DNA from: Obrimoposthia wandeli
Lineage: Eukaryota
NCBI GenBank assembly: GCA_977020255.1
Contig: CDROCS010002180.1
Span: 434,001-498,000 of the forward strand
Length of the DNA: 64,000 nucleotides
Direction: 5' to 3'
This document shows positions 7,501 through 28,303 of this stretch, one piece after another. The translations under genes were made by a program, and so were the position numbers. The notes beneath the pieces are model-generated. The model was given only the letters and a program-made list of their open reading frames with translations, was not told where the DNA came from and made no database searches. Position 1 is the first letter of the stretch. Each line of letters opens with the position of its first letter.

Positions 7501-10500
7501 TATATTTTTAGAAAATTTTTAATTCTTCAAATTATTATTTTTCAATAGTTTCATTATTTTAGCAAAGATGTGTTGGGACCAGAGTTGTTTTTAGTTTTTA
7601 AGGAAGCCTCTGGTGCAAGAGTCACTAAAATACATATGATTTGTGTGAAAGGCTTATCCTGGTTAGTCTCAATTTATCTGAAAGTTATTTGGTATCTTAA
7701 TGCAATCATTCAGCTGGGTTTTAGAATTGTTTCGATTATCCTTCATATGTGGGATGTATCTCCGAAAATTATAAACCAAATGATCAAATAGTGCGAGGGT
7801 AATCCATGTAACAGCAATCAATAAAATTGTGTAGAGTTAACAAATCCTAAAGGGATACTTTCATTTATAAAAATCTAACGCCGTTACAGATCTATGATTT
7901 TATTGTTTTATATCCAAAAATGGAACTTTATGGGTCGACAGTTAAAATTATTTATTCATTTTAGTATTAATTTAAGACAAAAAAGAGTTTTCACAGACAT
8001 CTGACTTACGCGTAGAGAGTCGTCGGCAATCTAAATAATTTTTATCAATTATGCTTCTCAATGTATTTCAAGTTTTAATTTCCTTAATTTATTTTCTTGT
8101 TCACCTGGAAATTGTCGGGAAATCCGTCTTCAAGATTTATCTCGTCTGCTACTTCTCTCACTGAATTCTACGGTATTCTTATTATATGAATTCGATTGTT
8201 CAATGGGTGTTGTTAGTTTTTGGAATTTCCAAATACAATACACGGCAACACTTTTTACTCAGCTTTCTCTCTCTCTGATGTGCTTTTTTATCACCTAATG
8301 ATATGACTGATTTATAGTCATATTAGGTGACCTCACATAATTAATTTCTATTCTTCTCTTTTCAATGTTGTCTTTTGATTTAGTACAGTATTTAAATTTT
8401 TATTGTTATTTGATTTTAATTTTAAGATCCCTAAAATGTCCTTGGCCAGAACTATAAATATCAGCCATTTATTTAATTAAATTAAATTGTCCGTTTCTGA
8501 ACCTTAACAGATGTGCCATGTAAAATAAATGGAAAAAAGTTCTTTTAGAAAATAAACAAAGTCACGAAATTTAGAAATAAACTAGCTTTGTAGTTTCTGC
8601 GAGTCTCCCAAAATATGTTTTAGTAGGATTGTCTTCAATTATTGTTTCTTTGGTTTCAGAACACATTCTAAACGGGATAAAAATACATAATACAAATACT
8701 TTGGTATCGCAAGCATAAACAAAAACAATAATTCCTTTGTAGATAAGCGTTCAGAAACGAAATTTTGCTTTCAATGAGCATGTTTACCTAATTATTTCAA
8801 ATTTGTCAAACTGGAGTTTACATGTGCCGGGTCAGACAGCTTTATGTCTGTGGAGATTCCAGGTCTACCAGATATTACATTACTTATTTATTGTCAGTCC
8901 ATCAGCGCGATAACCTGGATTTATTGATACTCGTTACCAAAGAAACATATCTCAGAGCTAGCGCTAACTGAATATTCGACATTGACTCCAATCCTCAAAA
9001 ATAATATTGATGATGCTATTTTTCTCATCAGATTTTAGGTTGAACTGGTTTATGGAATGATGATTCAATGAACAGATTTTATATGATTTCTCAGTATTTT
9101 GGACAAATGTCTGGTACAAAATACTATGCTGCAACAAATCTTATTATTTGAATAAACTTTGGAATTTTGTTATATTTTATTTTAATTCATTCAGTTTTAT
9201 GTTTTTATTTTTTATGAATTTTATTTTACTTTTGGTAATTTGTCAAAATTAATCTGTTTTCATAATATTCTGTTTTTAATTTTGCTCAGTCAATTTTAAA
9301 CCTCATTCTATCTTTGTATATACAAATGATATGTTCAACAAATTTAATGACTTAAATATATTGCATATTTTATCTATAAAAAATAAATATTCCATCACAA
9401 ATGAAAAAAAGGTCAACAATCCAGTACCGGTCCGAAAATATAGAAAAAAACATAATCAATAGCCGTCATAACAAAATGTGTAGTAGTTTTTGTAAACATT
9501 CCAGATAACAAGTAGGCATTATTACTGCTCACATCTTCATCATTCTGCAGAAGAACTCCTACAGCAAGACATGGGTGTGTTTGTCTAAGCAAAAGTTAAA
9601 GTGCGATAAACGGTGGCTCTGTTTCCCGTTGGAGAGTGTGAACACCCTCGCAAACGAGCTTCAGTTGGTGGCAGGGAAGCCGACCTCCACCGAAGATGAC
9701 AAACTGGTTGTGGAAGAAGTAAATCTCGAAGAAGAGACCAACAGAAAAGTGTACCGAAAGATGCTGAGACTCATCGTGATGATGGCAGTCAACAAACTCT
9801 ACGAAAACGATAGATCCCCGGACAATATCGATCCTACCAATGTGCTACTGATTGCTTCAAGGTCAGCCTTAACTTTTGTATGTAACATTTAATTTTGATA
9901 AAAAATGCTGTGAAAATGTTCTTTCATTAAATAATGAATCTAACACAGTATTTTTTCCCTTTCAATGTTACTTTTAAAATTTAAAAAAATATTTTAAAAA
10001 AAGTTGATCAGACTAGAAAATATTTTTAATTACAGTTTATTTTCAATAGAAGCCGCAGTATTGATATTCGTAAAGTAATATAAAGACACTTTGAGGAAAA
10101 TGTAAGTGCGTCCCTAACCAGAAATTCGACCTTTTTGTCAAGGTTGTGTATTTTGTTGGTAAAATAGTGAAATATGCTGTTGTACTATTGTTAAAAGGTC
10201 CCTCTTCCGTTTCTTTATTGCAATAAAATGTAACATTGAGTCATGGTCGCAGAAGCATCAATTACCAACACATTAATAATTTATTGAAAGTGTTGAGTTT
10301 CTGGAAAATGTGTATGTTCATAAGAACAAAAATAAACCGTATTTTTATTAGATTGATCAAAATTTCCTGGGCAGCGTGAGTATGTGTTTAATTCGGCCAA
10401 GACTTTTGATTGTTTCGACCCAGATTGATTTCGATCCAGTTAAATTAGGATTTTGTAAAGCTGATTGTTTTATATGGAGGTTGAAATTCAACCTTCCCGA

Positions 10501-11898
10501 TTAATACTCGTACCATCTTTCAGAAAGGTTGTATCGCACACAGATCGAACACACAACACAAATTTGTAGAAAATATTTCTGATAAATTGTACACAACTCC
10601 ACACGTAGCATAAAACCAACTTCAACTCTTATTGACACTACGTAGGCCACAACGATCACGAAAACCTACTTTTATAGATCTCACGAAGATTCTAAAGACG
10701 GTTTATAAAAAATTCCACAAGAAAAAAAAATAAAACACATTGAAAGCCACAAAATTATGATTGATTTGAGGCATGTGATATTTTCATAACATTATTTGAA
10801 TCCCATTATGAACAAAAATTAAATTATTGAGTTAATAATTAATGAAAATATGGTTTTTTAGAATAATTATTTAATACCAATAACTTAATTCAGACTATCC
10901 ACATGTGGGAATACATTTTATATCAATGAACATAGAGTTATTTAGAAAAAGGTTGATTTTGATAATTAATACAAAACATTTGAAGTTTTAACAAGTTTAT
11001 AATTTTTAAATGGAACATCGAATCTTTATAAAATAAGTATCATTTTAAAAGATAAATTTAACTGTCAATGAACATTTTGTCAAGCCTAGCCTTAGGATCT
11101 TTAAGATACTATATTTAGATATGCAAAAAATTATCATTTTAACGAGCACATATACCTACATTTTGGAACCTTTACTGAAGCCAAACATTTGAAGCTCAAA
11201 CTTTGCTTTTATGATCTAAAATAAATAGGTCGAAAAGATTTGGATTTTAAGGTATATATATATATACTTATTTTGAGTTTATTTTGATTTGGAAATAATT
11301 ACACCCGGTTAAATACACATTATATATATATAGCTCTGTTTTACTCATATGAAAAATAAAATAATTTCTAGTTCGATTAATTTTTACGGTTAGGCTTATT
11401 TAAGTTGATTAAAAACGACGTATTTACTTAGTAAAAGGCTTTTAAATAACAAAATTAAAGAACACAAGGTAGTCACGGTAAAATTTTCTTTGTTACAGGT
11501 TCGGACTAATTGTCGTCTTCCACGAGTGTTTGACAGAGTCGCGCCTGCTCTCCATGGATTTCCTGCGATGCGAGACTGTCGCAGATGTGCCTGTTCAGCT
11601 AGAACGCGCCAAGGTCGCAGTATACCGTTTAGCAGAGCCTCTACTTATTGGTCGACACAACCCGCTCCTCAAGGCCACAGTCTCCAAGCCCCAAGACCAC
11701 AAGAGGGAGGATATAATTACCCTACTAATCGCGTCTACCTGGCCACTTGACTATCTGTTACTTCTACTTGCTGAGTTGATGGAGGACGCCAACTGTCGAG
11801 CAGATGTTGACCACAAGTCCACCAAGAGGGCACTTAATAGTAGCTCTTCCTCCGCTTCCGAGCAAGGACAAAATGATGATGACGACGACGACGATTAA
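4522..11898 (+). CDS. Host gene 1, last five coding exons: 4522-4672, 5997-6182, 6921-7232, 9551-9861, 11499-11898; product unidentified, ends in poly-Ser/poly-Asp tail
   Basis: GC-rich islands bounded by AG/GT sites; splice phases (2/0, 0/0, 0/0, 0/2, 2/stop) join into one open frame ending TAA at 11898; upstream exons not found. Confidence 0.85.
5050..5750 (-). mobile_element. degenerate Tc1/mariner transposase fragment in intron
   Basis: Minus strand reads NFTDGKC/KLDGPMTDY, resembling the Tc1 FTDEKKFNLDGPDG catalytic region; broken by stops. Confidence 0.4.
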
Positions 11899-13569
11899 TA
11901 ATGACTATGACTTTAGCTCTTTGTGACTATCTTTGAATTTTCTGATCGTTTTTTTTATCAGAATTATCCTTAATTTCACTATCTTTAGGTGAATTTTCTA
12001 ATTTACTTGTTCTTTTCTGATGATTTTGAATTGACCTTATTTGAATTTTTGACTAAACAGAACAATATCCAAACCACAGACTTTCTTAATCGACAAAAAA
12101 GTTTTTTTTATAATTTAAATACTATATTATGACAGTTAACGATTCAACCAAATTATTACATTTTTAATAAATTGTTTAATTCTTAATTAATTATTAGATA
12201 TAATTTTTTTTAGAAAATCTATGAAAACACTGTTAATGAAAATAATACTTGAATTAGTTTTGTTTGTTTAATTTATAAACAAGGTCAACATTTCCAAATG
12301 ATTTACCGCGTATGCATATTTGATCAACGTTTATCATATCAGATAGTCTGTGGTTGATATAAATTTCACGTTACAAATTCAAAGTTCTACTATTAAATAT
12401 CAATTAAAATGTACTTTTATCACAAATCATCACAGTATTTTTTACATTTATTGTTACACTTTGGATGATTTTTTGGTAATTATTAGAAAGTATTTGTGAA
12501 AATTTATAATTTATAATTTTGAGCCTAAAGAGATTAATGAATGTTTTTTTAGTTACTTTTCATATTTGTTGTAAGAACTTTCATAGAGATTATTGAGCTG
12601 AATAACTTTATTCTCAACTGTGATTATGGAATTTTCATCTTTTATAATAAGTTTTTATAACATTATTTATTTTGGTGCGTTGAATCATCTTAAATTTTTT
12701 CTAATTTACTTAAATTATTTATTAATGTAGTTTTTATACCGTACTTGAAACATCTATCACCAGGTGAATGTGAAAGATTTGATTTATATACATTATTGGT
12801 CTTTGGTTTTGTTTAAAATATTTTCATGTAGTTTTGATTGCACTTCATATTTGTAATATTAGAGATACAAGTGAGTTATTTAATATATACATATATAAAC
12901 AGAAAAGAAAACTGCGAAGTGATTTACGATAAATTATTCAATTTTAAATCATTATTTTTTGTTTCATGTAAATTAAAATATAAATTTTGTAGCAGTTAAT
13001 TTCATTTGATATTTTCTATCAGATATTAATCAAAGAAAGACTGGGTCACTTCAAAACATTTATATTAATATTTTTCAAGTATATCAGTTTTATTTTGACA
13101 CGCGGTAATGTATTATCTCTATTAAATAACACGTCTTAGTTTACTGTATATAATATCTCCATCCGTAACTAATACTAATATTTTTCAGTTTTCTGGTTTC
13201 GTTCAATGAACACATTTGCACCACGCATCATTAACGAACCTCAACCAGTTTTATACCGATGAATTCTTGATATTTAATACCCCCTACATATCACGAGTCA
13301 AAAAATAATATATTAATAAAGAGTTATTTAAAAAACGTTGAGTTTCTTAATTAAATTATTGATTAATTAACTTTCAAAGTCGAATAAATTTTGATAGGAA
13401 CATCCAATAGAAATAAGCAAAACATAAATTTGATGTTGTAAAATTTTCGAGTTGATGAATATCGCTTTTGTGAATATAACACATTTGAGTACAAATTGCT
13501 TATATTATAGAATGCTATTAAAGCGAGAAATGGTACGATGAAATTGTTGGGGCTTTTATATGAACTTTT

Positions 13570-13900
13570 TGTAACATAGATCCTCAGACGGAGGGCCCCA
13601 ACGTGAGTTCTATAGAAGCAGGACTTGTAAATGTTTGTGGCCTACTTGTGTTATGCTTGCCTATCTCAATTTGTATCTGAAGTTTATTTATGGTTAGGTG
13701 TTGTGAAATGTGTGAAGAGCTGTGTATATGAATATTGCAGAATTCCCTTAGTGTGGTGTTGTGTGTAGAGTAGTTAACAACTACTTGCTTGTAAGGGTTC
13801 GGTTTGGTACAATACGGTTTAATGTAGGATATCTTTATTTCTAAACACACGACTTTACGTTTTGACCTGTTCTAAAAACAGCAATACTAATTCTAGTTAT
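13570..13900 (+). mobile_element. 5' part of a putative LTR interrupted by the Polinton (continues 29165-29182)
   Basis: Starts TGTAAC at 13570; beyond the Polinton the sequence resumes and ends CTAACA followed by AG-TGG (PBS-like). Confidence 0.5.
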
Positions 13901-14478
13901 AAGTGTAAAGTGTCGGTTCTAAAACAATAGCACACAAAGCCCTCCCCCTCCCCGAACAAGGAACGAGGAACAAAGCACATCTGGAATTCGCTTAGTCATG
14001 CAGATGTGCTTTGTTCCTCGTTCCTTGTTCGGGGGTGAGGGCTTTGTGTGCTATTGTCTTTGAACCGACACTTTACGTTTTCAATCCTGATTGGTCTTAT
14101 GTGTCATTTACAATTATGTAGGTTAATATTCTGTAACATTAAGTATATAGTTCAAAAATTTAAAAATTTAAAAAATTTTAATTCAAAATTAAAAAATTAA
14201 ATATGGAAATTAAAAAATTAAATATGGAAATTAAAAAATTAAATATGGAAATTAAAAAATTAAAATTTTAATTCAAAAATTAAATATGAAAATTAAAACA
14301 TTAAAATTTTAAAAATAACATTTTGAAATTAAACACAATTGACCGTCCCAAATTTTTATTTGCAACTATTTAATTTACTTAGTACGGCAACCTCATTCCA
14401 GGAGTTAGACTGCCCCGCATAACCGGACAGCTATCGCAGTTTTTATCTTAAGAAACGTTATTGTTTATAGTAGGAGTT
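13901..14478 (+). repeat. left TIR of Polinton, with terminal hairpin 13905-14076 and A-rich tandem array ~14150-14320
   Basis: Reverse complement of ~28562-29154 with scattered mismatches; lacks the terminal AGAG. Confidence 0.92.
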
Positions 14479-14533
14479 TATATTTATATAATGAAGAAAG
14501 CAAAGTAACATCGATAAATATATATTAGTACAA

Positions 14534-15187
14534 TTATAAGCGAACTTGTCCATCAGTAATTTTCCAGATTGGTTTATGAAGACCTGTACAGTTGATTTTG
14601 TATCCCTGTATTGAAATGACGATCATCCATTTGAGTCCAGTTTCCATATTGTCAACATTAAAGTCGTGATCTCGCTTGAAAAGATTAGGATCAGCTCGAA
14701 TTATTATATGATTCCCAACTATAATGTTGAGATGCATCGACGCGAAAGTTGTGTTAAGATCATCAATATCTGATGGATTTAATCTATGTATCTTGAAATC
14801 GTATTTTGACTTATTCAGAGCCACCGGAAACATGAATCCATATATGATTGGAGTCTTCAAAAAATTCATTTGCCAGTTATAAAACATAACCGGCTTGGTT
14901 TACTTCAAATCGTTAGACTCAAATATTACACCTGATGGTCTATTGTTGATGAACGGTTTCTTATGTTTGAGTGTAGAAACTATATCATCAATAAAGAGAT
15001 CCTCATTTGTTGCTTGCTTCTCAATCTTGATAGTCTTGGATAGTTTGTTGTTGTTGCTTGTCATAGTTTGCTTCTTTGGTTTTGATATAAAAACTACATC
15101 ATCATCATCGGTATCCACATCTGTGTCTGTAAGCCTTGTTGTTGGTGACTTCTCGAACTTAAGAGATTTAGTTTGTTTAGAGTTCAT
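14534..15187 (-). pseudogene. Polinton leftward gene (~217 aa): acidic/Lys-rich N-terminus plus globular C-terminal domain, one in-frame TAA
   Basis: ORFs 14900-15187 and 14534-14887 share a frame and are separated only by TAA at 14900-14902 (..ESNDLK*TKPVMFY..). Confidence 0.7.
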
Positions 15188-15189
15188 AT

Positions 15190-15313
15190 CAAAATAATGA
15201 ATTCTATACCAAAAGTGGTAGCTTATATATATATCATCATACTCGATTCTGATTGGATAATCTTTAGCTTAAAAATTTTATATATAGATTGGGTTATTTC
15301 CATTAATTCAATC
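15190..15313. promoter_or_regulatory. divergent promoter between leftward gene and TBP-like gene
   Basis: TATATATA runs at ~15224-15233 and ~15279-15286, each ~35-45 nt from an ATG; ATTGGATAAT at 15252-15261 and a second ATTGG at ~15288. Confidence 0.55.
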
Positions 15314-15806
15314 ATGAATCTTGCAAATATTAATTATAAAGGTAAAGTTAAAGGAGACATCAGTCACTTACCCTACAAAGCCGGGAAACCATGTCAGTAC
15401 GTGCACAGGTGTAAGGATTATACCCTTATAATCTTCCGTTCAGGTATGTTTTTATGTTAGTTAGTTAGTTAGTTAATTATTAGGAGCATGCATGATAATG
15501 GGTTGCAAGAAACCTATTACTACAACTATGCTCAAGTGTCCATTTAGAATAAAGATTGATCGTATTCAATCAGTAACGGTTACTGTCGATTTAGGTAAGA
15601 AGGTGAACCTATACAAGTTGTCTCAAAAGTGTGGAGCTGCATGCATGTTCGAACCTGAGTTGTTTCCTGCTTTGAGGTTTACAAAACACAATCTTCTGTG
15701 CGTCAACATATTTGCAAGCGGGAAAGTGGTCATACTCGGTCTCAAGGATTTGGATTATAACTTTGATGTGACTTTGATAATAACTGATATTTTACTTTTG
15801 ATATAA
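15314..15806 (+). CDS. TATA-box-binding protein (TBP)-like protein, 150 aa, join(15314-15443,15484-15806)
   Basis: Spliced product has both TBP repeats: TLIIFRSGACMIMGCK (cf. TALIFSSGKMVCTGAK) and FEPELFPAL...VNIFASGKVVILGLK (cf. YEPELFPGL...LIFVSGKVVLTGAK); the 40-bp GTATGT...TTAG intron restores the frame. Confidence 0.92.
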
Positions 15807-15848
15807 ACAATAAATTTTAGTTGAATTTTTATTCTTACATGATTTGAA

Positions 15849-16748
15849 ATGCTAGTTGATTATATACTTCATTATACAACTGTTGATGATGTTTTAGTTA
15901 GACGAAAAGTAGGTTATTCTAGAATGAAAGTTTTACACTGGAAATATAGACGTGAAAGTGAAAGATTAAGATCATTAATTATAAATTTTAAAGGGAAACA
16001 ATCTGTAAATGATTTAGCTAAAGCCGGATTTTATAAACATGATGATGATTCAACCGATAAAGTAAAATGTATATACTGCCAAGGTGCGTTATCCGAATGG
16101 GAATGGTATCTTAAACCAATGAAGCAACATATGAAATTTTTTCCTACATGTCCATTTCTTTTAAAGTTAAATGTTTCAAATGGACCAATAATTGAAACTA
16201 TGGACAAGAAAATCGATTTTGATACATCACCATTGATTGGAAAAGTACATGTATCAGATATTGATATAAAATTACCTGATATATGCTATTCAAAATGTTT
16301 AGGACCCTATAATGAGGCTAATGTTATTGAGAAAATCGAAACAGATTGTATAATTGAATATCCTTTGACTATTGAGAAATTCGATATGTTGATGGATACA
16401 AACCAAATCAGATATTTGAAAAGGTTTTTCACAAAAGATAGAATAAAATCTGTTTTAAAATATAAAATGATACGATATGGTGAATACAATTCACTATTTG
16501 AATTGCTTTGTGATTTATCTAATTTAGAAATGAAACCTGAAAAACAATATATAAATATACTTTCATACATTTTAAAGGAACCCGAATGTGTAGTATGTTT
16601 AAATAATCATATTGAAGTAGTATTTCTCCCTTGTGGACATGTAAATACATGTATATCATGTTCTAGAATGTTACATTCATGTCCAGTATGCAGATGTCTG
16701 ATCGAACGGAGAGTAAGAAATGTAAAATTTCATGGTATAAACAATTGA
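15849..16748 (+). CDS. iap: inhibitor of apoptosis (IAP): one BIR domain plus C-terminal RING, 299 aa, intact
   Basis: BIR: LAKAGFY..DKVKCIYCQGALSEW..PMKQHMKFFPTCPF; RING: CVVCLNNHIEVVFLPCGHVNTCISCSRMLHSCPVCR. Confidence 0.95.
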   Translation: MLVDYILHYTTVDDVLVRRKVGYSRMKVLHWKYRRESERLRSLIINFKGKQSVNDLAKAGFYKHDDDSTDKVKCIYCQGALSEWEWYLKPMKQHMKFFPTCPFLLKLNVSNGPIIETMDKKIDFDTSPLIGKVHVSDIDIKLPDICYSKCLGPYNEANVIEKIETDCIIEYPLTIEKFDMLMDTNQIRYLKRFFTKDRIKSVLKYKMIRYGEYNSLFELLCDLSNLEMKPEKQYINILSYILKEPECVVCLNNHIEVVFLPCGHVNTCISCSRMLHSCPVCRCLIERRVRNVKFHGINN

Positions 16749-16766
16749 AATTTATGATTTATATAA

Positions 16767-17033
16767 ATGGATGAAAACAATAAATTAGTTGATGATGCAG
16801 TCGAGGAAATTATAAACGGAACAATAAATGGAGTTCAATACTTTTCTAGTTTTGATGGACTTTCTCGTAATAATATAAAGGAAATTGTTTGCACCCATGT
16901 CTATAGAGATATCAAACGGATAAAGGATTTTGAAATATTCGTTCAAATTAATCGTTCAAACATGATGTATATAACCTTTTCTGCGTCAATTTTTAATTCT
17001 CTGTTGTTGTATATATTAATAAAACGTATATAA
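16767..17033 (+). CDS. hypothetical Polinton protein, 88 aa
   Basis: ATG-initiated ORF filling the gap between IAP and ATPase; TATAAACAAT 31 nt upstream. Confidence 0.6.
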   Translation: MDENNKLVDDAVEEIINGTINGVQYFSSFDGLSRNNIKEIVCTHVYRDIKRIKDFEIFVQINRSNMMYITFSASIFNSLLLYILIKRI

Positions 17034-17063
17034 ACAATCGTTTCTTTTGATTTATTATTATTG

Positions 17064-17711
17064 ATGATGATAAAACTTAAAAATAACGCGGTTTACCAAA
17101 TAGTAGGACCTAGTGGGAGTGGGAAAACACATTTTGTAACTAAATTACTTCAAAATAAAAACATGTTTGATCAAAAGTTTGGTAGAATATACTGGCATTA
17201 CGGAGGTGTAGGTGAATCTGGTCTAACACGAACAGAATTAGGTAAATTGAAGGGTATTCATTTTATTAATGGTTTTGATAATAAATGGTCTGAGAGGTTA
17301 AATTCAGGAGATGTCATTGTAATTGATGACTTGTATGATGAAGCGAATAAAGAGTCGGGTTTTAATAACCTGTTTACCAAAATAGCTAGACATATAAATG
17401 TAACAGTGATTTTTATCACTCAAAATCTCTTTCATCAAGGCGGTCAACACCGTACTCGGAATTTAAATGTACATTATCTAGTATTATTTAAAAATCCGCG
17501 AGATCAAACGGTTATCGACTTTGTTGCCCGTCAAGCTTTCCCTTGCAATAAGCAATATTTGATTGACGCATTTCAAGATGCTACAACTAACCCTCATGGA
17601 TACTTGTTTTTAGATTTTACACAGGAATGTCCAGACGATTTACGCGTGAGAACCGATATTTTCAATAATGATTTTGTATATAAACAAAAGAAAAGCCTAT
17701 CTACTTGTTAA
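17064..17711 (+). CDS. FtsK/A32-like genome packaging ATPase
   Basis: Walker A GPSGSGKT, Walker B VIVIDD, ARH..VTVIFITQNLF, Polinton-typical HGYLFLDF; intact. Confidence 0.95.
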   Translation: MMIKLKNNAVYQIVGPSGSGKTHFVTKLLQNKNMFDQKFGRIYWHYGGVGESGLTRTELGKLKGIHFINGFDNKWSERLNSGDVIVIDDLYDEANKESGFNNLFTKIARHINVTVIFITQNLFHQGGQHRTRNLNVHYLVLFKNPRDQTVIDFVARQAFPCNKQYLIDAFQDATTNPHGYLFLDFTQECPDDLRVRTDIFNNDFVYKQKKSLSTC

Positions 17712-17713
17712 TC

Positions 17714-18025
17714 ATGTCATTTATGAAAGAAACAATGCCTAGTGGAGTTGGACCTAAATGGAGACCGGGTGATAAATTACACGCTAATGATAACAAATTG
17801 ATGCTAAAGAAGAATGCTCATATTAAAAATCTTATTAAATCAGTGCTTCATCAGCGTAAAGTAGTCGATGAATCATTAAAGAAATCGGTAAAGACAGTAA
17901 AGAGAAAACCTGTAAAAAAGAAACCATTAAAGAAGAAACCTGTTAAGAAAGCAGTTGGAAAGTCGGTTAAGAAGTCGGATAAAAAGCGTGTAAATAAACT
18001 AGTTGGTAAATGGATTAAACTATAA
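17714..18025 (+). CDS. Lys-rich basic protein, putative DNA-condensing core protein
   Basis: KRKPVKKKPLKKKPVKKAVGKSVKKSDKK tract; lies in the virion module; function is inference. Confidence 0.7.
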   Translation: MSFMKETMPSGVGPKWRPGDKLHANDNKLMLKKNAHIKNLIKSVLHQRKVVDESLKKSVKTVKRKPVKKKPLKKKPVKKAVGKSVKKSDKKRVNKLVGKWIKL

Positions 18026-18056
18026 ACAATATTGCAAATAGTTTAATTCATTAAAT

Positions 18057-18385
18057 ATGTTATCAAAATCTATACTTCCCTACTTTCAGGCTTTAATCAA
18101 GGCTCCAAGCATATATAGACCACGTATACTCAAGTCATTTCCACCCTTTGTTATTGATAAGTTGGTTGAAGTTTTGTTTAATATTACAAAAGGTACTGTA
18201 AAAATCGGTAATCATAAACATAACCTTAGAAAACATCAAAAAGCTTTACTTGATTTAGTGAATACTAAAAGTAAAACTGGTAAACGTAGAGTAATTCTAA
18301 AACAAAAAGGTGGTTTTATCGGTGCATTAATACCTATAATTGCTATTTAGTATCTCCTTTGATTGCAAAATTGATAAACTCATAA
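18057..18385 (+). CDS. conserved Polinton small virion protein with QKGG|F motif and hydrophobic C-terminal helix (apparent 1-nt frameshift near 18346)
   Basis: ..KRRVILKQKGGFIGALIPIIA; shifted frame continues LVSPLIAKLINS* to 18385. Confidence 0.75.
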
Positions 18386-18436
18386 ACAAAATGGGTAATA
18401 ACATACCAAACATCGATTTTAAATTCACTTGTTGCA

Positions 18437-19458
18437 ATGGAAACGATATGGTACGATCCCGAAAACCCAGCTGGGTACAGCAGCATTACAAAAGTCAATC
18501 GAGTCAAAAGAAAACTCAGAAATGGCTGAGCAATCAGCTAGCATACAGTCTAAATAAGCCAATGAAGCGGAAGTTCCCGACTCGAGCATACAGAACAAGC
18601 GGTCCTAACGATTTATGGCAGGCCGATTTGATGGAAATGATACCATATGCAAGTATCAATGACGGTAACAAGTATATTTTAACATGTATTGACGTGTTTA
18701 CAAGGTATGCGCGTGCATTACCTGTAAAATCTAAATCAGGTAAGGATATAGAGGCTGCTCTAAGTATAATGATTGATAAAACTGTCCCCATACATGTGCA
18801 AACCGATAAGGGTAAAGAGTTTTACAACAAAAATGTAGGTAGTTTATTAAAAAAATTAAATATTGAACATTACTCTGTAGTTTCACAATTCAAAGCTGCC
18901 CTAGTTGAAAGGTTTAATAGAACATTGAGAGATCGATTAAAAATACATTTTATTGCACAAGGCAATAAAAGATGGGTTGACGTTTTACCAAAAGTAATGA
19001 CTTCATACAATCACAGTAAGCATAGAGGTTTAGACGGATTGAGACCTGTCGATATTAATGATAAAAATGCAATGGAAATTTGGTTGAGTCGTAATCAAGT
19101 CGATAAAGTTAATAAACCCAAACATAAGACTGGTGATTATGTTCGGATATCAAAGTTTAGTGGTAGCCCCTTTATTAAAAACTTTGATCCGAATTGGAGT
19201 GATGAAGTGTTTAGGATAGAGAAAATAGACAAACGTGCAAATCCTGTAATGTACTCTATAGTTGATGATGACTGTAATGTAATAACAGGGAAATTTTATG
19301 AACCTGAATTACAAGTAATTGATAAACCTACACTTTTCCGTATCCAATAAGTCGTAAAATCTAAAGGCGGTGGTAAGAATAAACAATATCTCGTAAAGTG
19401 GCATGGATATTCTGAATCAACATGGATCAAAGCAAGCCAGATAGAGACTTCTATATGA
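18437..19458 (+). pseudogene. retroviral-like (c-int) DDE integrase with C-terminal chromodomain; frameshift ~18495 and premature TAA 19348-19350
   Basis: METIWYDPENPAGYSS N-terminus in another frame; DDE triad WQADL / QTDKG / VERFNRTL; after the stop VVKSKGGGKNKQYLVKWHGYSESTWI (chromodomain). Confidence 0.93.
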
Positions 19459-20585
19459 TTTTACCGAGTAATAGTTGTCCGAAAACTCAACCTAATAATA
19501 TGGCTTCATTATTCACTGTAGATTGGGAGAATCCAATTACGTTAAATGGTAAATGGGAGGCGGCATTAACTGAATTTACGTATACAAACACTCCTGTTAT
19601 TTTAAATAAGGGCAGTGAAATTAATTATTCTATTAAATTCTCCAATCAACAGACTGATCAAATATCTTTATCAGTAATTCATACTCAAGTAGAAGTAGAA
19701 AAGAAAGAACCGCAATTGCATGGTGATAAATCAGAACCAAAAGTTATTAAAAAGACAATTAATAAAATATCAAAACTCACCGTCACGTCTAAAGATAAGA
19801 TTGCAAAGCTTTCTATTTCCTTAATCACAGTTGGTGTAGGTATTGATAAAAAGGATAATGTTGTACTAATAAAATCCGTCAACAACAAAAAATTATATAT
19901 CAAGATGGATGCTGACGCTAAAAATGAATTAGGATTCATTTTCAATACATTAACTTCAGAAAGTTTCGAGTCTGATGATAAAGGAGTTTTACAAGGATCA
20001 ACATCTATCAGACCTGATTGCAGTGCACATAATTTACAATATATGCATTATAAAACCGGTTCATACAACAAGAAAACTGTATTTACAGAAGATTTAAATA
20101 ATAATAATGTAAATGCATTAGTAGCATACATTAAATCTAAATGCGACGTTATATTTAAAAGATTTTATATGGATGATAATGATAAGCTAATAAAATTTGT
20201 ATTAAAGAATGGAATTGAGCATATTGGATTTGATCAACGTTTAATGCATGTATTAGGGTTAGATAAATCACGATTTACGGGCAACGGGTCAGGTAAACCT
20301 CGATTAAATTACGAGTTTGATCACATGTATTCTAGTCTGTGTGAACCTGTAAACGTTGGAGGTCAAATGATACCCTTATTAAAATCTATATGGTTAGATA
20401 AAAATAAAGCACCAGGAGACACGGTTAATATCGCAATATACAGACCCATGTATATCCCTTTAGCATCAAATGTAATCTCAAACATTGAAATTAATATTAG
20501 AAACGATGCAGGTGTTCCAATAAGTTTTTCCAACAATGCAAAAGTATCCCTTACCATACATGTCCGTTGTATAGATCAGGTATAA
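19422..20585 (+). CDS. minor capsid protein (penton), intact, 387 aa
   Basis: Polinton-typical N-terminus DFYMILPSNS..NNMASLFTVDWENPITLNGKWEAALTEFTY and C-terminal MYIPL..IEINIRNDAG..VSLTIH. Confidence 0.88.
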   Translation: MDQSKPDRDFYMILPSNSCPKTQPNNMASLFTVDWENPITLNGKWEAALTEFTYTNTPVILNKGSEINYSIKFSNQQTDQISLSVIHTQVEVEKKEPQLHGDKSEPKVIKKTINKISKLTVTSKDKIAKLSISLITVGVGIDKKDNVVLIKSVNNKKLYIKMDADAKNELGFIFNTLTSESFESDDKGVLQGSTSIRPDCSAHNLQYMHYKTGSYNKKTVFTEDLNNNNVNALVAYIKSKCDVIFKRFYMDDNDKLIKFVLKNGIEHIGFDQRLMHVLGLDKSRFTGNGSGKPRLNYEFDHMYSSLCEPVNVGGQMIPLLKSIWLDKNKAPGDTVNIAIYRPMYIPLASNVISNIEINIRNDAGVPISFSNNAKVSLTIHVRCIDQV

Positions 20586-20621
20586 ACAATCTGTATTCAA
20601 AAATAGTTGTGCATTACAGTT

Positions 20622-21028
20622 ATGAATATAATTGAGACATTTAGTGGGCCTCAACAAGGTGGTGAATTACCATATTTTGTAGGTAAACAGTACGGTTCGG
20701 GATGGTTGAAAACATTGGGGCGGTTAGCATTCCCTATACTGAAAAGATTAGGCCGTGTTGGAGTTAAAACAGTTCAAGATGTAATAATGAACAACAAATC
20801 TGTGTTACCAATGCTTAAACAACATGCACTAGGGAAGTTGCCGGAGCCATACCGGAGGCTAAGGAAGCTTTTGGTACAGTTGTTAAAATTATTAAAAATC
20901 GACGTAAACGTAAAGCAAGTGAAGCAGCACAAATGGTTGAACCCGAAACTAAAAAGCAAGAGGGTAGTGGTAGAAAGAAAGCATCTAATATAAACAAACG
21001 AAGAAAACAAGGTACAATATTTGCTTAA
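20622..21028 (+). CDS. Polinton core/cement protein with QQGG and QYGSG motifs and amphipathic helix (pVI-like by inference); frameshift ~20832
   Basis: GPQQGGELPYFVGKQYGSGWLKTLGRLAFPILKRLG; shifted frame gives ..KQEGSGRKK..KRRKQGTIFA* ending just before the hexon ATG. Confidence 0.78.
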
Positions 21029-21030
21029 TA

Positions 21031-22253
21031 ATGGCTTGTGGTAAATCTGAATTATGTATTTTTGATCGAGCTTTGCCTCAGGTAGTTGTAAATAATGGTA
21101 GCTTTGAAGATATATATCCAACAAACAATATTACCGGAACAAGAACATCAGAGATTCTGTTTAAAATCCAAGGTTCAGATATTGAGAACTTAGATTTGAA
21201 TGATACCTTGTTGTTTGTGAAAATTAAAGTAACGAAAACTGATGGTACAGATATAGCTGTTACAGATTATGTGGTCCCATCAAATTTCTTGATGCATTCC
21301 CTATTTAAAAGCATAGATATATCAATGAATAATACTGTAGTAGAAACCCATCCTCAATATGCACAAAAAGCTATGATTGAAACCATACTAAACTATAGCA
21401 CAGACACTAAAGACACTTGTTTGTCGAGTATAGGTTATGATGATACTGAAGATAATCGTAAAGGTTGGGCTGATCGCTCAAAAGAAATTGACTTGTGTGG
21501 GACTCTTCGATCTGATATTTTTGAGCAACCAAAGTATCTCTTACCTGGTGTGTCTATCATGGTAAGACTTGTACCTAATAAATCTATGTTTAGTCTGAAC
21601 TACGGAACGACTCCATCGCGAATCATATTTATTGAAGCTAAACTTAAAGTCAGAAGAGTCAGAGTTGAGAATGATGTTTTAATGGGACATAATATTGGTC
21701 TTGAATCTAGGAATGCTGTATATCCCTATACTCGCACAAAGCTAATGTATCATACCTTAGCCATCGGTTCTACGAGTTTTTACAAGGATCAAGTGTTTGA
21801 TGATGAACAATTGCCTAAATTTGTGTTGATTACGTTGCAAGCAGGTGAAAAACTTATCGGTAATGGTGCTACAGACTCTTCAACATTCGATCATTCTAAT
21901 GTTAACACTATCAGTCTTGCTAGAAACAGTGATTTTAACGAATCTTACAGTACAAACTTTGAAACAGGTGAAACCACCTTTGCATATGTCCAATCTATCA
22001 TTAGAAATATGGGTAATTTGGATAAGAATATAAACAATGGCGTATCACTGGATGAATTCAAAACCAAATATCCATTTTCACGTTTGTTTTAGCCCCTGAC
22101 TTTGATATCACGCAAAACCAATTAGCAAAACAGGGTAATTTACGCCTTGACATCAAGTTTCACAAGTCATTAACAGTCCCAACAAACGTACTGATTTAAG
22201 GGATTTTTGATTCTGAGTTTGAAATAACTAAAGGCCGACGTGTGATTGTATGA
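21031..22253 (+). pseudogene. double jelly-roll major capsid protein (hexon); frameshift ~22078 and in-frame TAA near 22198
   Basis: MACGKSELCIF..LDLNDTLLFVKIKV, SDIFEQPKYLLPGV; shifted frame completes FTFVLAPDF..QGNLRLDIKF..VLI*GIFDSEFEITKGRRVIV*. Confidence 0.92.
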
Positions 22254-22610
22254 AGTGAGTTTTTTAATTTATGTTTTAAGATTTTATTAACAACAAGTAC
22301 TGTTCAGGTGAATGAAATAACTAGTTTGCTGCTCGGACCGCGATTTAAGGGTGTATACCCGTTGGAAATAATCCTAACATTAACGCCTGGTGGATATATT
22401 GTCAATACACATACCTCAAATCTTACTGGAGACCACTGGATTGCGTTATTCGTGAGACGGAATTCTGTACATGTGTATGACCCTCTTGGAGTATACTATC
22501 CGGGAAAACTTATCAAGCATGTAGAGTCTCAAGGAAAACATGTATATTACAACAAAATTCGTTCTCAAAACCCACTGACTACTAATTGCGGTCCACTATG
22601 TATCTTATAA
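22250..22610 (+). CDS. adenain-like cysteine protease, join(22250-22254,22298-22610)
   Basis: Catalytic H (GDHW), D (YDPLG), Q/C (SQ..TTNCG); a 43-bp GTGAGT...TTAAC..AAG intron gives MNTVQVNEI; ATG overlaps the hexon stop (ATGA); TAA at 22610 may be premature. Confidence 0.88.
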
Positions 22611-23100
22611 TTGTATGATCAAACTATATAAATGTCAAACATTTTAATTTGTGTTGATTGGTAATAAAATTTGTATTCAAAATCGTATTTGTTTTATAAA
22701 TAGCTTCAACTACCCAGTCGAAATTTTAAAAAATTTGAGTTTTGATAAATTAAAAAATAGATTTAAAATCTACTAATTAAGAGAAAATTAATGGTGTGAA
22801 TTATTTTTAAAAATTCATAGTCTAACGGTATGAATATCGGTTATGAAAAATATCATAATTGATTGACCGTAATTAACCTTTATGATAACGTGTGTAGCAA
22901 CTAGGGAATAAAGGGTCTTTATGACACATTCCTAGTTTGTAATAATGAAAGTACACACGTGTGTGTGTGCATCTAGGGCAGAAACTACACTGACTGTGAA
23001 CCATATATAAACAATCAGTGTAGATGCATTCATCAATTTTATCACAATTATCAAAAGTAAGTATTTTGATTTTATTTTAATTTTATTATTTTTTTTTTAG

Positions 23101-23472
23101 ATGTCGAAAATTATTTTCGCGTACAATGCTAAGAAAAGATGGACGATGAAGCCTGTAGTCGATATGGATGATGATGATGTCGACTTGGATGCGACACCAC
23201 AACAAAAAGGTAATTTTTTGATTAGTATTTTTAATTTAATTTTCATTTAGCAATGCCCAGTGTCACAACACCACCAATATCGATTGCGCCATGGATACCA
23301 ACAATATATGATGATGATGCTACTAGGAAAAGAAGGAAACAAAAGAAGCCGAAAACCTCTGATGATGATGATGATGCTACTAGGAAAAGAAGGAAACAAA
23401 AGAAGCCGACAATTTCTGATGATGATGATGATAATAAGAAAAATCCAAAAGTTTTTTTATCTTCTAAGAAAT
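23101..23472 (+). CDS. spliced Polinton gene, join(23101-23209,23251->23472), with acidic/basic 19-aa repeats; runs into the gap; upstream intron 23057-23100
   Basis: GTAAGT..TTAG and GTAATT..TTAG introns keep frame; DDDATRKRRKQKKP(K/T) repeated with 57-bp period. Confidence 0.7.
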
Positions 23473-24010
23473 NNNNNNNNNNNNNNNNNNNNNNNNNNNN
23501 NNNNNNNNNNNNNNNNNNNNNNNNNNNNNNNNNNNNNNNNNNNNNNNNNNNNNNNNNNNNNNNNNNNNNNNNNNNNNNNNNNNNNNNNNNNNNNNNNNNN
23601 NNNNNNNNNNNNNNNNNNNNNNNNNNNNNNNNNNNNNNNNNNNNNNNNNNNNNNNNNNNNNNNNNNNNNNNNNNNNNNNNNNNNNNNNNNNNNNNNNNNN
23701 NNNNNNNNNNNNNNNNNNNNNNNNNNNNNNNNNNNNNNNNNNNNNNNNNNNNNNNNNNNNNNNNNNNNNNNNNNNNNNNNNNNNNNNNNNNNNNNNNNNN
23801 NNNNNNNNNNNNNNNNNNNNNNNNNNNNNNNNNNNNNNNNNNNNNNNNNNNNNNNNNNNNNNNNNNNNNNNNNNNNNNNNNNNNNNNNNNNNNNNNNNNN
23901 NNNNNNNNNNNNNNNNNNNNNNNNNNNNNNNNNNNNNNNNNNNNNNNNNNNNNNNNNNNNNNNNNNNNNNNNNNNNNNNNNNNNNNNNNNNNNNNNNNNN
24001 NNNNNNNNNN
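23473..24010. other. assembly gap (538 N)
   Basis: Run of N. Confidence 1.
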
Positions 24011-24070
24011 ATTCTAATTATTTAAATAAACGTTTTGGGGATATAAATGATATAAAATCAAATTCTCCCG

Positions 24071-24132
24071 ACTGCCATAGCTGCCCGGTAACGCGGGGCA
24101 GTCTAACTCCTGGAATGGGGTCGCATAGTAAG
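24071..24132 (+). promoter_or_regulatory. internal copy of a ~62-bp GC-rich TIR cassette, 29 nt downstream of a TATA-like box
   Basis: Aligns with 28600-28662 and the reverse complement of ~14378-14440; TATAAATG at 24042. Confidence 0.75.
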
Positions 24133-24330
24133 TTAACTAAATCAAGAAGTTACCTCTTACTTTTTAAACCAGGGACACCTGTTGGGTCACCTGTTAATTC
24201 GTTAGAAAATTTCAATGTAAATGAGATATACTCGGGTTTTGAAAATATCCCGTTTAAAAAATATTTTAATCAACTAAAGAAAGTTAAAAATCAAAATATT
24301 GATTTAAGTAAACTGAAAACAGAAGGTAAG

Positions 24331-24621
24331 ATGGGTAAACGATTTCGTCAGAAGCTGCGTAGATTGAGAAAACAACCAGCAGGTATAACAATATTTGCAA
24401 ATTTATTAGGGTCTTGCAAACCCATTAATATTAGTCCAGGTCTGAAAATTACAGATCTGGCAAATAAATTATATGAAGTCTTCGGGACTGACCAAATTTA
24501 TTTTTATCGTAATGGCATGCCCTTTGAAGGGGAAGCTACTATTGGCAATGTTTTACATGAGGGGGCTATTATCCATGTATACCCTAAACTTCGTGGAGGA
24601 AGTAACTTATGTACATTGTAA
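24331..24621 (+). CDS. ubiquitin-like domain ending LRGG (24589-24600), in frame with downstream pPolB
   Basis: ITIFANLLGSCKPINISPGLKITDLANKLYEVFGTDQIYFYRNGMPFEGEATIGNVLHEGAIIHVYPKLRGG aligns by eye with ubiquitin; true start uncertain because the frame is open back to the gap. Confidence 0.8.
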   Translation: MGKRFRQKLRRLRKQPAGITIFANLLGSCKPINISPGLKITDLANKLYEVFGTDQIYFYRNGMPFEGEATIGNVLHEGAIIHVYPKLRGGSNLCTL

Positions 24622-27600
24622 AAGTATTGCATAAACGTTAATCATGGAATAGAATGTCATAGTGTAATGCTTAAATATTATAAATTTAAAAGCGGTTTTA
24701 TTTGTCCACATTGTGATGTGTTATATTGTATTGTCTATCAAACATTTTATAATGATCATAAGGATCATCTGACGTATTTTAAATCTAAAAAGTCGGCATA
24801 CAAACGTAAAGTAATGAGTGTACCAACAATAGACAACAATAAAATAACAAAAACTAATAATTTTGATGAAGAGTTTGATGTGGTAGACTCGTGGGAACCG
24901 GATAGTGTTGTAGAAATTGATACTAATCCTGAAGTTGTAGAAATTATTGAGCCTTTAACCCCTAATGACATCTTAAATAATAATAATATTGATGAACTTA
25001 TAGATCAGGACGAGTTTATAACAGAAAATGATTTTTTCGACTCGCTCCTAGCTATTACGGATGATGACTTTGATAATATTGTTACAATTAATTCAGATAA
25101 TACATTAACTTTTAACAATCAAATAGGAGGTGCAATTCAATCAAACCTTGTTTTTGATGTTAGTGGGTTAAACATGCTTAAACTATACATTAACGATACT
25201 ATGCTAACTGAACTTACTATCAGTATAGATGTGTTTGGTCCCTGTAAAATACAGTTTGGTGTTGAAACCGAATTTGTCAATAATGAGGGTCAGCATAAAA
25301 CATGGCATGTAAGCTGTAAAGCAAATATTTTTGAACAAGATTTTATCACTACAAGAACAGTTGAGCTCAACAATAAAATTGAAATTTATAAGGATATGAG
25401 TTCGGGATGGTCAGTATTTAAAATTCTGTTGGTATCCTTTAAATTTACTGCACTTTAAAACGTAGCAGGATCATCATTTATAAAAACCCCGGTTGCGCTT
25501 GCTAAAACACTATCTATAGTGAACGTAAATAATACTGATGATCAGTGTTTTAAATACGCTGTTCTCAGTATCTTACACTATAAAGATTTCAATCGAACAG
25601 ACAAAGAGTTGAAAACTATAATGAATATTTAAATGAACTAATATGCGAGCTTGGTTCTATGAGGATAGACTGCATCAAGGTGTTTGAAAAACTCAATAAT
25701 TTTGCGATAACAGTATTTTCCTATAAACCTACAAAGGTAAAGCCTCATAGTAGTCATCTAGTGTTTAAAAACCTAGATGTTAACGTTATTTATAGAACGA
25801 GTCTTAGGCAGTGCAAAAAAGTAGTAAACTTGTTGCTGTTGAAACAGAGCGGTAATTATCACTATACAGGGAATACAAAACTGAATAGACTTTTATATAC
25901 TCAAAAATATAATGTGCGTCTCTTTTCGGTTTTCGAACCACGATTTCATATGACAAACACAGGGCACATTGTAATATTAATACAGATTTAACAACCTTGT
26001 TTACAATGCCTAAAGATATCAAGTGTCAGTTTTCCGACTATTCTAAATCTATTGCGCCACCATTTGTTGTATATGCCGACTTTGAGTCAATACTCGAGCC
26101 GCATAATACTTTCAAACACATTCATAAACCAATATCTATAGGGATGATTTTGAAAAACAACACTAATAATTCAATACAATATTTTAGTTATTACGGTCTG
26201 CAGTGTGCTAAAAACTTTGTAGATAAATTAACTGAGTTGATAAATGGTGAAGTGGCAGATTTTTGGGTAAATAGTATTAATGTTCCTATGGTTTTTATTA
26301 ATAATGACATGTTGAACTTTAGAGATTGCACTAATTGCTATCTTTGTAGAAAATTAAACGATCGTATGGTTAGAGATCATGATCATATCACGGGTAAATA
26401 CTTGGGTGCGGCATGCAACAAATGCAATTTAAGTCGCAAGTTTGCAAAGAGACCAGTTTTACCTGTGGTGTTTCATAACCTTATGGGTTATGATATACAT
26501 CTTATTCTAAAATATGCTGACTTGAAAGGTAAATACTTTTCAATTATCCCTAAATCAAGTGAAACGTTCATGTCCCTCCGTATAGAGATGAAGAGGGGGA
26601 CATTGAAATTCATTGATTCATACCTTTTTACAACGTCAAGTCTTGAATCCTTAGTTTCATACTTGTCAAGTTGTCCTTATACTACACAATACCTAAACCC
26701 TAATATTGCAACAAGTAAGGCGGTATTTCCATATGAATATATTAGTGGTGTTGATAGGCTTGTGGAGAGGCAGTTACCTGCTAAATCTGAGTTTCCTTCT
26801 CGAGTCACTGATCAACAATATAATGAAGCCCTAATGATGTGGCCGTATTAGGGTGTAATACTATTAAAGACTACATGCTTGAGTATATGAAACTTGAGGT
26901 GTACCTGTTATGTGATGTTTTTGAGGCCTTCAGACAGAAAGTAAGGGATGATGATAATCTAGAGGCGCTCAATTTTTTTAGTATCCCGGTCTCAGTTGGG
27001 CTAGCGCATTAAAAACGTTAGAGTATGACGTGGATTTATTGCATGATCCCGAAATGTATAACATGTTTGAGGCAGGGATACGGGGAGAGATGACTTTCAT
27101 CAAAAAACATTACGTTAAAACAACAGATGAAACATTCCTCCTATACATTGACATAAACAACCTATATGGCTGGGCCATGAGTCAACCGTTACCACATACA
27201 GATTTTACATGGGTATATGACGGTTTTGAAGCGATAATTGAGCTTATAACTGAGAGGGATATTCACGGTAATATGCAGGACTTAAGTCTTAAAGAACATG
27301 GATACTTGATGGAAATTGATTTACACATACCCATCAGTATTCATGATAAACGTGATGACTTACCGATTGCGCCTAATAGAGAAATCCCTCCCGGCTCAAA
27401 AGCTTCAAAGCTGTTGATGACCCATGAGGATAAAAATAATTACATCATACACTCACAACTACTACAATTTTACTTGTTTCTGGGCACAGAAATTAAACAA
27501 GTGCATAGAGCAATAAAGTTTCATCAAGCTCCTATATTTAAAACATATATTTATATCAATAGCCGGAAACGGCATGTAGATAAAGATGTTCTCTTAAAAC

Positions 27601-28094
27601 AAATGATTAAAGATCAAAGGTTAGATACTAGTAATTACCCGCTCACACATGAGTTATTTAACGATACTCATCGAAATGTTATTGGAAAGTTTAAAGATGA
27701 AAGCAAAAGGACAGTGCTTTATGATGAATGGGTATTTCTGAAACCTAAATGCTACTCATTGAAAACCAGTATGAGGGCTAAGGGTATCTCCCTTAAACAA
27801 ACCGAAATCAGACATGAGCATTACATCAAGTGTTATGTTGATGATGAAATTATAACTGCCGGTCAGACACGTATTTTATCTCGTAATCATCAATTATTTA
27901 CAATGTATAATTATAAAATTGCGTTAAGGTGTTATGACGATAAAAGGGTTTGGATTGAGAAAATCAAATCCGTCGCATATGGACACTATAGTCTAAGACA
28001 GGTGTATAAAATCTGGGGTAACCTCTTGAAAGTATTGACTTATATCCTTCTTATTTTTATTGTAATAAGCAGAATATTGTATGTATCTTTTTAA
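24622..28094 (+). pseudogene. polB: protein-primed family B DNA polymerase (terminal-protein region, OTU-like segment, exonuclease, EndoVII-like insert, polymerase); fragmented, motifs B and C deleted
   Basis: SSGWS, NTDDQCFKYAV, VVYADFESIL (ExoI), RDHDHITGKYLGAACNKCN, FHNLMGYD (ExoII), YIDINNLYGWAM (motif A), IGKFKDE, DDKR..AYGHY; several stops and frameshifts. Confidence 0.95.
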
Positions 28095-28211
28095 ATGCGA
28101 TAGTATGTATATATTTTTAATGCTATAGTATGTATATATTTTTATTGATGTTTATTATTATTAATACATTGTATGTATCATAACCATGTCTTGACTTCCT
28201 ACTAGCTACTC

Positions 28212-28270
28212 ATTGGATAATTTCGTTGGATAATTTCATTGGATAATTTTAACAAATTCTCTATAAATAT
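28212..28270 (+). promoter_or_regulatory. three 13-bp repeats containing TTGGATAATTT followed by TATAAATA
   Basis: TTGGATAATTT at 28213, 28226 and 28239; TATAAATA at 28262, 42 nt before ATG 28304. Confidence 0.65.
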
Positions 28271-28303
28271 ATACACACTTCAACCAATTTCTTATTATTT
28301 CAA

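Follow-up and report, generated by a model that had tools for sequence, protein, structure and literature searches.

YATAAACA, a probable late promoter motif of Obrimoposthia wandeli Polintons which encode a compact TATA-binding protein

The closest described counterparts of the motif reported here are the late promoters of beta- and gammaherpesviruses, which combine a TATTWAA box with a virus-encoded protein of TATA-binding protein (TBP) fold, such as ORF24 of Kaposi's sarcoma-associated herpesvirus, and the TBP/TFIIB pairs of large double-stranded DNA (dsDNA) viruses. We analysed a stretch of 64,000 nucleotides from Obrimoposthia wandeli (assembly GCA_977020255.1, contig CDROCS010002180.1, positions 434,001 to 498,000 of the forward strand; hereafter the window, numbered from its first letter), in which a Polinton/Maverick element of about 15.2 kb lies at 13901–29154. 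One short motif, YATAAACA, stands upstream of most capsid, packaging and integrase genes of this element, which also encodes a compact TBP. The motif is a real feature and very probably a promoter; the reading we favour, which we consider probable, is that this variant of the TATA box serves as a late core promoter and has the TBP of the element as its reader.

As in the herpesvirus late promoters, host-like early boxes and a late TATA variant are predicted for this element. In the parts of bioRxiv 10.1101/2025.08.25.672222 used here, ORF24 resembles the Polinton protein in having a TBP fold, in being encoded by the virus, in the greater polarity of its DNA face and in working with host RNA polymerase II (Pol II); it differs in being large, in acting within a six-protein complex and in lacking the acidic TFIIB contacts, whereas the Polinton TBP has about 150 residues, is stand-alone and keeps these contacts. 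The herpesvirus box deviates at position 4 and the Polinton motif at position 7, no common origin is implied, and beyond the difference in motif we found no Pfam match of the ORF24-complex type among 18 window ORFs (open reading frames). The element would work like the herpesvirus TATT/ORF24 system without being a member of it. The promoter motifs of virophages and polinton-like viruses match those of their helper giant viruses, as in mavirus and CroV. In the partial descriptions used here, most genes of these polinton-related elements are likewise preceded by a single common motif; their motif is read in trans by a cytoplasmic giant virus, whereas here the candidate reader is encoded in cis and the predicted introns are of spliceosomal type.

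The large dsDNA viruses, as far as the excerpts used of PMC7221094 describe them, are similar in encoding a TBP with a diverged N-lobe; they mostly have their own TFIIB and the TFIIB-contact acidic residues vary in most viral TBPs, whereas the fetched loci of the motif-bearing Polinton clade gave no TFIIB-like match, the acidic pair is kept and predicted introns point to nuclear transcription. The gene content is that of Polintons, Mavericks and adintoviruses as given in portions of PMC8502044 and bioRxiv 10.1101/697771, namely terminal inverted repeats (TIRs), a protein-primed DNA polymerase B (pPolB), an integrase, an A32-like ATPase, capsids and a protease. A TBP-like gene is named for some MELD viruses in the figure legends of these two papers; the word "promoter" is absent from their main texts, which contain no early/late classes and no link between TBP and a motif. 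A description of this promoter was not found in the literature searched, supplements being outside that scope, and these may annotate TBPs in animal adintoviruses. Compared with the cellular TATA box, given as T1A2T3A4W5A6W7R8 or as the EPD consensus YWTAWADN in the part of PMC1935006 used here, the motif agrees at positions 1–6 and 8, in orientation and in ATG spacing, and C at position 1 also fits the EPD consensus; it is unlike it in that its invariant position-7 C is the sole base which the EPD consensus excludes.

A scan of the window found exact copies of TATAAACAA on the + strand before a succession of genes. These lie at 15802–15810 (over the TBP stop codon and 47 nt before the ATG of a BIR-RING, or IAP-like, gene at 15849–16748), 16736–16744 (+31 to the ATG of an 88-aa ORF, 16767–17033), 17029–17037 (+35 to that of the A32-like packaging ATPase, 17064–17711), 17679–17687 (coding for the terminal YKQ of the ATPase and +35 to a basic ORF, 17714–18025), 18021–18029 (+36 to the gene of a PX/adenovirus X-like core protein, 18057), 20581–20589 (over the minor capsid stop and +41 to the ATG of PZ, 20622), 20989–20997 (+42 to that of the major capsid gene, 21031), 22029–22037 (within the major capsid gene and 221 nt 5' of the protease ATG, with no ATG from +24 to +220) and 23006–23014 (+95 to an ATG at 23101, or about +51 if the GTAAGT..TAG stretch at 23057–23100 is an intron of the 5' untranslated region). 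The offset to the next ATG is thus 31–47 in 7 of the 9 copies, 95 in one and 221 in one. Two one-mismatch copies stand in the same series: CATAAACAA at 18381–18389 (+), an enriched position-1 variant which is 56 nt before the integrase start at 18437 and is present in 38 of 39 siblings, and AATAAACAA at 19378–19386 (+), in the integrase chromodomain 5' of the minor capsid gene, which is doubtful in the window's family and whose homologous counterpart in families E1, E2 and F is CATAAACAA at −68. All of these motif positions, and the seven offsets from +31 to +47, had been given correctly by an earlier, sequence-only reading of the stretch; further variant copies (TATAAACAT at 16032 and 28539) were missing from it.

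That reading had named enrichment over a dinucleotide-matched background as a test, and the motif passed it clearly: 9 copies were found in 15301–23100 against a mean of 0.28 and a maximum of 3 in 2000 dinucleotide shuffles. TATAAACAA was also the top-ranked over-represented 9-mer of this region against an order-2 Markov model (Poisson p ~8e−11), and 48.7 kb of host flank held 3 copies. The motif lies over a stop codon at 4 intact junctions of the window. This overlap had been pointed out before and is present at several junctions, with the correction that the one at 20989 is peculiar to the frameshifted window copy, the stop in a sibling (L058) being 37 nt past the motif.

We compared the window with 40 loci fetched with a divergent TBP or capsid query, of which L040 was left out as interrupted. 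Clustering on nucleotide identity gave seven families including the window's (A–F, with E split in two; C and D were split by hand from the identity table), whose capsid proteins are 40–52% identical to the window's and whose gene orders differ. In one representative per family (48.6 kb), TATAAACA was found 59 times on the coding strand and 5 times on the opposite strand, with 4.3 expected. The conserved core is the 8-mer YATAAACA, position 9 being A in 42 of 59 sites; of the 24 single-base variants, the one with C at position 1 is conspicuous (10 vs 1.9 expected), and every site has C at position 7 and therefore does not match TATAWAWR or YWTAWADN. Among 39 sibling loci of the window's family, none of 81 motif positions was polymorphic, compared with 970 of 7519 positions elsewhere, and the chance that nine AT-rich 9-mers would all be invariant is ~0.0015. 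Depending on the site, the motif encodes YKQ/HKQ or xINK/xINN/DINT, supplies a stop codon or falls between genes; all three reading phases are represented, and the constraint is therefore one on the DNA. Outside this genome, the scans of viral contigs yielded no related loci and a metagenome scan yielded 3, of which 2 were useful. Homologous ATPases from outside the genome end in YK[QH] in 111 of 117 cases, at a median of one residue before the stop, which fits the motif; this tail, at the protein level, is the only conservation signal outside this genome.

The distance from the motif to the gene start is conserved between families. It is 33–53 nt for the ATPase and 35–42 nt for the major capsid gene (7/7 families each), 29–38 nt for the gene after the ATPase (6/6 scored families), 33–48 nt for a small ORF before the integrase (4/4 scored families) and, for PZ (7/7 families), 41–52 nt in A and B and 96–101 nt in C–F. 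Overall there is a floor near 30 nt, with most offsets at 29–53, whereas the offset to the upstream stop varies widely, from about −410 to +225. Of the earlier claim that the motif is positionally fixed, this floor survives and strict fixation does not, given the tail to 95 and 221; a shared motif at a set distance from the ATG in related elements was indeed seen in all seven families. Likewise, the motif does occur in the 3' end of the preceding gene, which we attribute to genome compaction since its offset to that gene's stop is not set.

ATGs at +7 to +29 are common and would be skipped, and several long leaders are free of ATG from +30 to the gene start (the protease in A, with ~190 nt, and in B, the minor capsid gene in B and PZ in C–F), for which the ATG density of 0.024 per nt gives a chance near 0.01 per ATG-free leader of 190 nt. 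Taken together, the ATG offsets and ATG-free leaders bracket a predicted start site at about +30 to +32, which is the usual metazoan TATA spacing. The single orientation (59:5), the ATG floor of 29–33 nt and the skipped ATGs up to +29 fit a TATA-like position, and since the ATG offset is narrow and the stop offset variable, a core promoter at the TATA position is most likely, rather than a polyadenylation signal.

The candidate reader, which the sequence-only reading did not mention, is encoded at 15314–15806 (+). The ORF at 15314 represents the N-lobe and continues across a predicted GT-AG intron of 40–43 nt (exon 1 15314–15443, exon 2 to 15806), giving a product of 149–150 aa; both exons align with intron-less homologs, and a splice test also backs this structure. 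This intron (15444–15483 in the window) is found in families A, E1, E2 and apparently F, and is not present in B, C and D. Exon 2 matches Pfam TBP (E = 1.1e−12). A model of the family built from 34 sequences has a predicted local distance difference test score (pLDDT) of 94.7 and matches only TBPs at E ≤ 0.001. The search, as limited by its length bounds, returned 39 homologs of 87–175 aa. The C-lobe retains E-P-E-L-F-P and the second Phe, and its acidic TFIIB-contact stirrup (E/D and E) is kept in 32 of 32 homologs. Helix 1 and the first Phe are missing from the N-lobe, where the Arg and Met of CRIMG are invariant; the residues of this lobe were mapped by eye because HMMER and hhalign aligned only the C-lobe. 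Instead of the four intercalating Phe and two central Asn of cellular TBP, three intercalating Phe are kept in 32 of 32 homologs, Ser takes the place of the C-lobe Asn in 30 of 32, and an invariant Asn stands in place of a Leu.

The TBP gene itself avoids the motif. Its predicted early promoter in the window is a canonical TATA box, TATATATA at 15279–15286 (+), 35 nt before the ATG and with ATTGG (a reverse CCAAT) nearby. Across families A–D and F, YATAAACA was found within 260 nt on the coding strand of none of 23 TBP gene copies, whereas a strict TATAWAWR precedes 19 of the 23 and family D has TATACATA; in E1 and E2 we identified TATAAATA or TATAAAAG by eye. The canonical boxes lie 33–47 nt before the ATG, which matches the spacing of the motif. 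On the other strand, the m1 and m2 ORFs (14534–15187, −) form a probable T7 gp2.5-like single-stranded DNA-binding protein (SSB) gene, with a canonical TATA run at 15222–15233 (−), 42–46 nt before the m1 ATG and with CCAAT upstream, which is also a predicted early promoter. The m2 gene next to TBP has a canonical TATA box, often with CCAAT, and no motif. Thus, structural genes carry the motif and the TBP and SSB-like genes canonical TATA boxes; we note that the integrase and accessory genes carry the motif as well, and that the starts of polymerase genes were too poorly resolved to be classified by promoter type.

We also looked at elements and genes without this TBP. A second Polinton group of the same genome, with double jelly-roll capsid, integrase, ATPase and pPolB genes, gave no TBP match in 20 stretches, save where elements of the first group are nested; its copies are degraded, with bounding inverted repeats in only two. 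It has 3–5 motif copies per 8–14 kb, on both strands, those inspected being within coding sequence, and its listed ORFs are free of the motif over the 62 nt preceding them. A metagenomic locus of similar gene order (L031), with no TBP match in 10.9 kb, which may be incomplete, has TATAAATA at −42, −50 and −44, where it runs over stop codons in the manner of the motif. A GC-richer, Polinton-like metagenomic locus (L032) differs from the window's clade in having adjacent TBP-like (Pfam E = 2.8e−9) and TFIIB-like (E = 6e−6) genes at 1088–3132. Among host genes, the motif was found within 110 nt in 0 of 39 histone and HSP70-family upstream regions, a small control made up of 20 from histone genes (of which 4 have a misassigned start), 6 of eukaryote-type HSP70 and 13 of DnaK type which may be bacterial. 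The latter 13 matches (in L171–L189) have DnaK-type N-termini, which suggests bacterial contigs in the assembly.

The reader of a promoter at this position could also be host TBP/TFIID, for which the motif would be a TATA box kept weak on purpose, or a different factor of host or viral origin, and the element TBP would then have some other function. We consider this unlikely, while giving it real weight: the spacing of the motif equals that of canonical TATA boxes and the element TBP lacks one Phe and helix 1 of the N-lobe. A weak box would need no invariant C at position 7, and yet TATAAATA (9 vs 7.7), TATAAAAA (10 vs 13.9) and TATAAAGA (7 vs 4.7) show no clear enrichment; moreover, the motif goes unused by elements with no TBP match and by host genes, and the TBP gene avoids it. 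For a host Forkhead factor which would bind ATAAACA and activate element genes, as the sequence-only reading had proposed in the alternative, the core does fit the FOX consensus (G/A)(T/C)(A/C)AA(C/T)A in the part of PMC2910063 used here. The variants which this consensus permits are nonetheless at background (GTAAACA 8 vs 6.6, TGTAAACA 2 vs 2.4, TACAAACA 3 vs 2.9, TATCAACA 0, and TATAAATA as above), the motif is strand-locked (59:5) where a Forkhead site would be a degenerate RYMAAYA in either orientation, it needs a 5' pyrimidine, and it stands where a TATA box would, in most cases without a further TATA box. Because of the background variants and the strand lock this proposal is improbable and was not borne out.

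The motif contains TATAAA, a variant of the polyadenylation (poly(A)) signal, and could serve to end the upstream transcript, as the stop overlap at 4 intact window junctions and its presence after the last gene at both element ends would allow. The upstream stop, however, lies 37–225 nt downstream of the motif at many sites (+37 to +43 for PZ, +100 for the minor capsid gene, +145 or +223 for the major capsid gene and +168 for the integrase), so that poly(A) cleavage would cut within coding sequence; ATG offsets are narrow where stop offsets are not, and the required CA after TATAAA is left unaccounted for. There is accordingly little to recommend poly(A) as the general explanation, and a second, poly(A)-type role at some junctions is possible. 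Least credible is an origin of the motif in protein constraint (YKQ, INK) together with codon bias and AT richness, to which the YK[QH] ends of 111 of 117 ATPases and the common codons TAT and AAA (0.75 and 0.74) might point. The motif is found in each of the three phases as well as between genes, in one of these phases it takes the rarer codons ATA (0.32) and AAC (0.16), it stands at non-homologous positions of the capsid gene across families and it is invariant in siblings, by which this explanation is largely refuted.

We therefore return to the late core promoter read by the element TBP. In this model, host TFIID would first transcribe the TBP and SSB-like genes; the element TBP would then bind YATAAACA and, by way of its stirrup with the conserved E-P-E, bring in TFIIB and Pol II of the host, and transcription would start ~30–32 nt downstream of the motif. 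Host TBP would be weak at the motif because of the C at position 7, the single base which is shunned by cellular TATA boxes, and the reshaped N-terminal lobe of the element TBP would accommodate this C. That this TBP binds the motif is a likely inference. The predicted GT-AG introns point to nuclear Pol II. An earlier promoter-type interpretation is partly supported by these results, with the element TBP added as the likeliest reader. We lean, if only slightly, towards a true early/late cascade in a widespread Polinton clade, with a minimal, orthogonal switch made of one 150-residue TBP, which would have arisen independently of the herpesviruses and in which a TBP minus a helix and one intercalating Phe would read C7 and plug into host TFIIB, and in which the promoter would be written into the element's own proteins, as in the terminal YKQ of the packaging ATPase.

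Several observations weigh against this model. We take the base known as C(−25) in a TATA variant to be position 7 of the motif. A Hoogsteen pair allows cellular TBP to bind the C(−25) variant (PDB 1QN3), and an TATAAACG box kept 27% activity in a plant assay (PMC10005294); host TBP therefore stays a possible reader. Other single-base variants of the motif are mildly raised (A8G 6 vs 1.4, A6T 8 vs 3.8). The alignments of the element TBP by HMMER and hhalign are limited to the C-lobe. In TBP structures it is the 3' half of the box which the N-lobe touches, and there the motif leaves the cellular consensus. The minor capsid gene has only AATAAACA in A, C and D, which is not enriched (5 vs 5.8), the protease leaders of families C and F have intervening ATGs, and there is no evident downstream gene at 16032, at the TIR copies or at two copies in family C (1885 and 3398). 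L032 has a TBP of another lineage but no motif, and the co-occurrence of TBP and motif amounts to one clade against three outgroups, of which L031 may be incomplete.

If the model is true, the element TBP should prefer C7 among the boxes TATAAACA, CATAAACA, TATAAAAG, TATAAATA and TGTAAACA, and this natural TBP with changed position-7 specificity would inform TBP–DNA recognition and might provide an orthogonal TBP–promoter pair. For the question of how animal Mavericks/Polintons control their genes and whether they act as autonomous viruses with a timed programme, it would offer a concrete promoter, a candidate reader, a start site and gene classes, and would set this clade apart from the helper-dependent virophages. 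In practice, the motif also helps to locate the true starts of genes in these elements and micro-exons which would otherwise stay hidden. The maturation protease gene (22250–22632, +) has a predicted 5-nt exon 1, a 43-nt GT-AG intron and an exon 2 from 22298; the layout of a 5-nt exon and short intron is the same in families A, D and E1, and an acceptor test also backs the prediction. Four sequencing runs from one sample showed flat depth, with the predicted introns absent among the joints listed, and are uninformative on transcription.

The element is bounded by TIRs at about 13901–14480 and 28560–29154, with a hairpin near each end, and its membership of the Polintons/Mavericks (adintoviruses) is indicated by these TIRs and by Pfam matches to rve, Pox_A32 and DNA_pol_B_2 (a fragment, below cut-off). 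At least 150 near-identical copies of its ATPase exist in this genome. In the window copy the integrase, PZ, major capsid and polymerase genes are broken; pPolB fragments, the BIR-RING gene and the adenovirus X-like protein are also present. The major and minor capsid and cysteine protease genes are presumably those named here, being assigned by gene order and known motifs; the capsid has only a weak Pfam match (Capsid_N, E = 0.004), and the window capsid and protease have tblastn matches of 27–30% to L031. For the SSB-like gene, the model of a homolog (pLDDT 86) has weak best PDB matches to the Enc34 and T7 SSBs (E 0.13–0.34), and 17 viral proteins, unnamed or uncharacterized, match at E ≤ 0.001. 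We considered m2 as a second transcription factor and rejected this, as it has no homologs at E ≤ 0.001 and a weakly SSB-like fold.

The exact TIR copies of the motif, at 14461–14469 (−) and 28571–28579 (+), both face outward; the former has no long ORF downstream and the latter follows the TATAAACAT copy at 28539. They are located where the sequence-only reading placed them and are not a common feature: shared TIR copies were not seen in other families among 10 flank pairs, 7 of which have inverted repeats of ≥ 60 nt, the motif facing inward in one E2 pair, lying a little within one arm in two C pairs and missing from the arms of the others. Just downstream of the TIR motif copy sits a 54-nt TIR piece (14387–14440 and 28600–28654) which is repeated, at 87–89% identity, at 24071–24124 in the ORF before the polymerase. 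At 24400–24621 that ORF ends in LRGG, with no Pfam match; by its motif we take this end to be ubiquitin-like.

Reverse copies of TATAAACA were found ~15 nt downstream of the TATA box of the TBP gene in family E2 (L079, ~984, −) and within the TBP gene in family B (L034, ~1594, −); these might serve in autoregulation or as late promoters of the replication gene which runs divergently. Over the integrase start, a short out-of-frame ORF (18391–18450 in the window) with a Met-Gly start and Cys-Cys is conserved in families B, E1, E2 and F, where it uses the first ATG after the motif; it could encode a small protein or slow the translation of the integrase. Family E2 has an accessory gene which resembles dual-specificity phosphatases (L079, 1693–2322; Pfam DSPc E = 1e−6, below cut-off), and in a family B locus (L050, 4808–9475) the major capsid gene is present as six partial copies in tandem.

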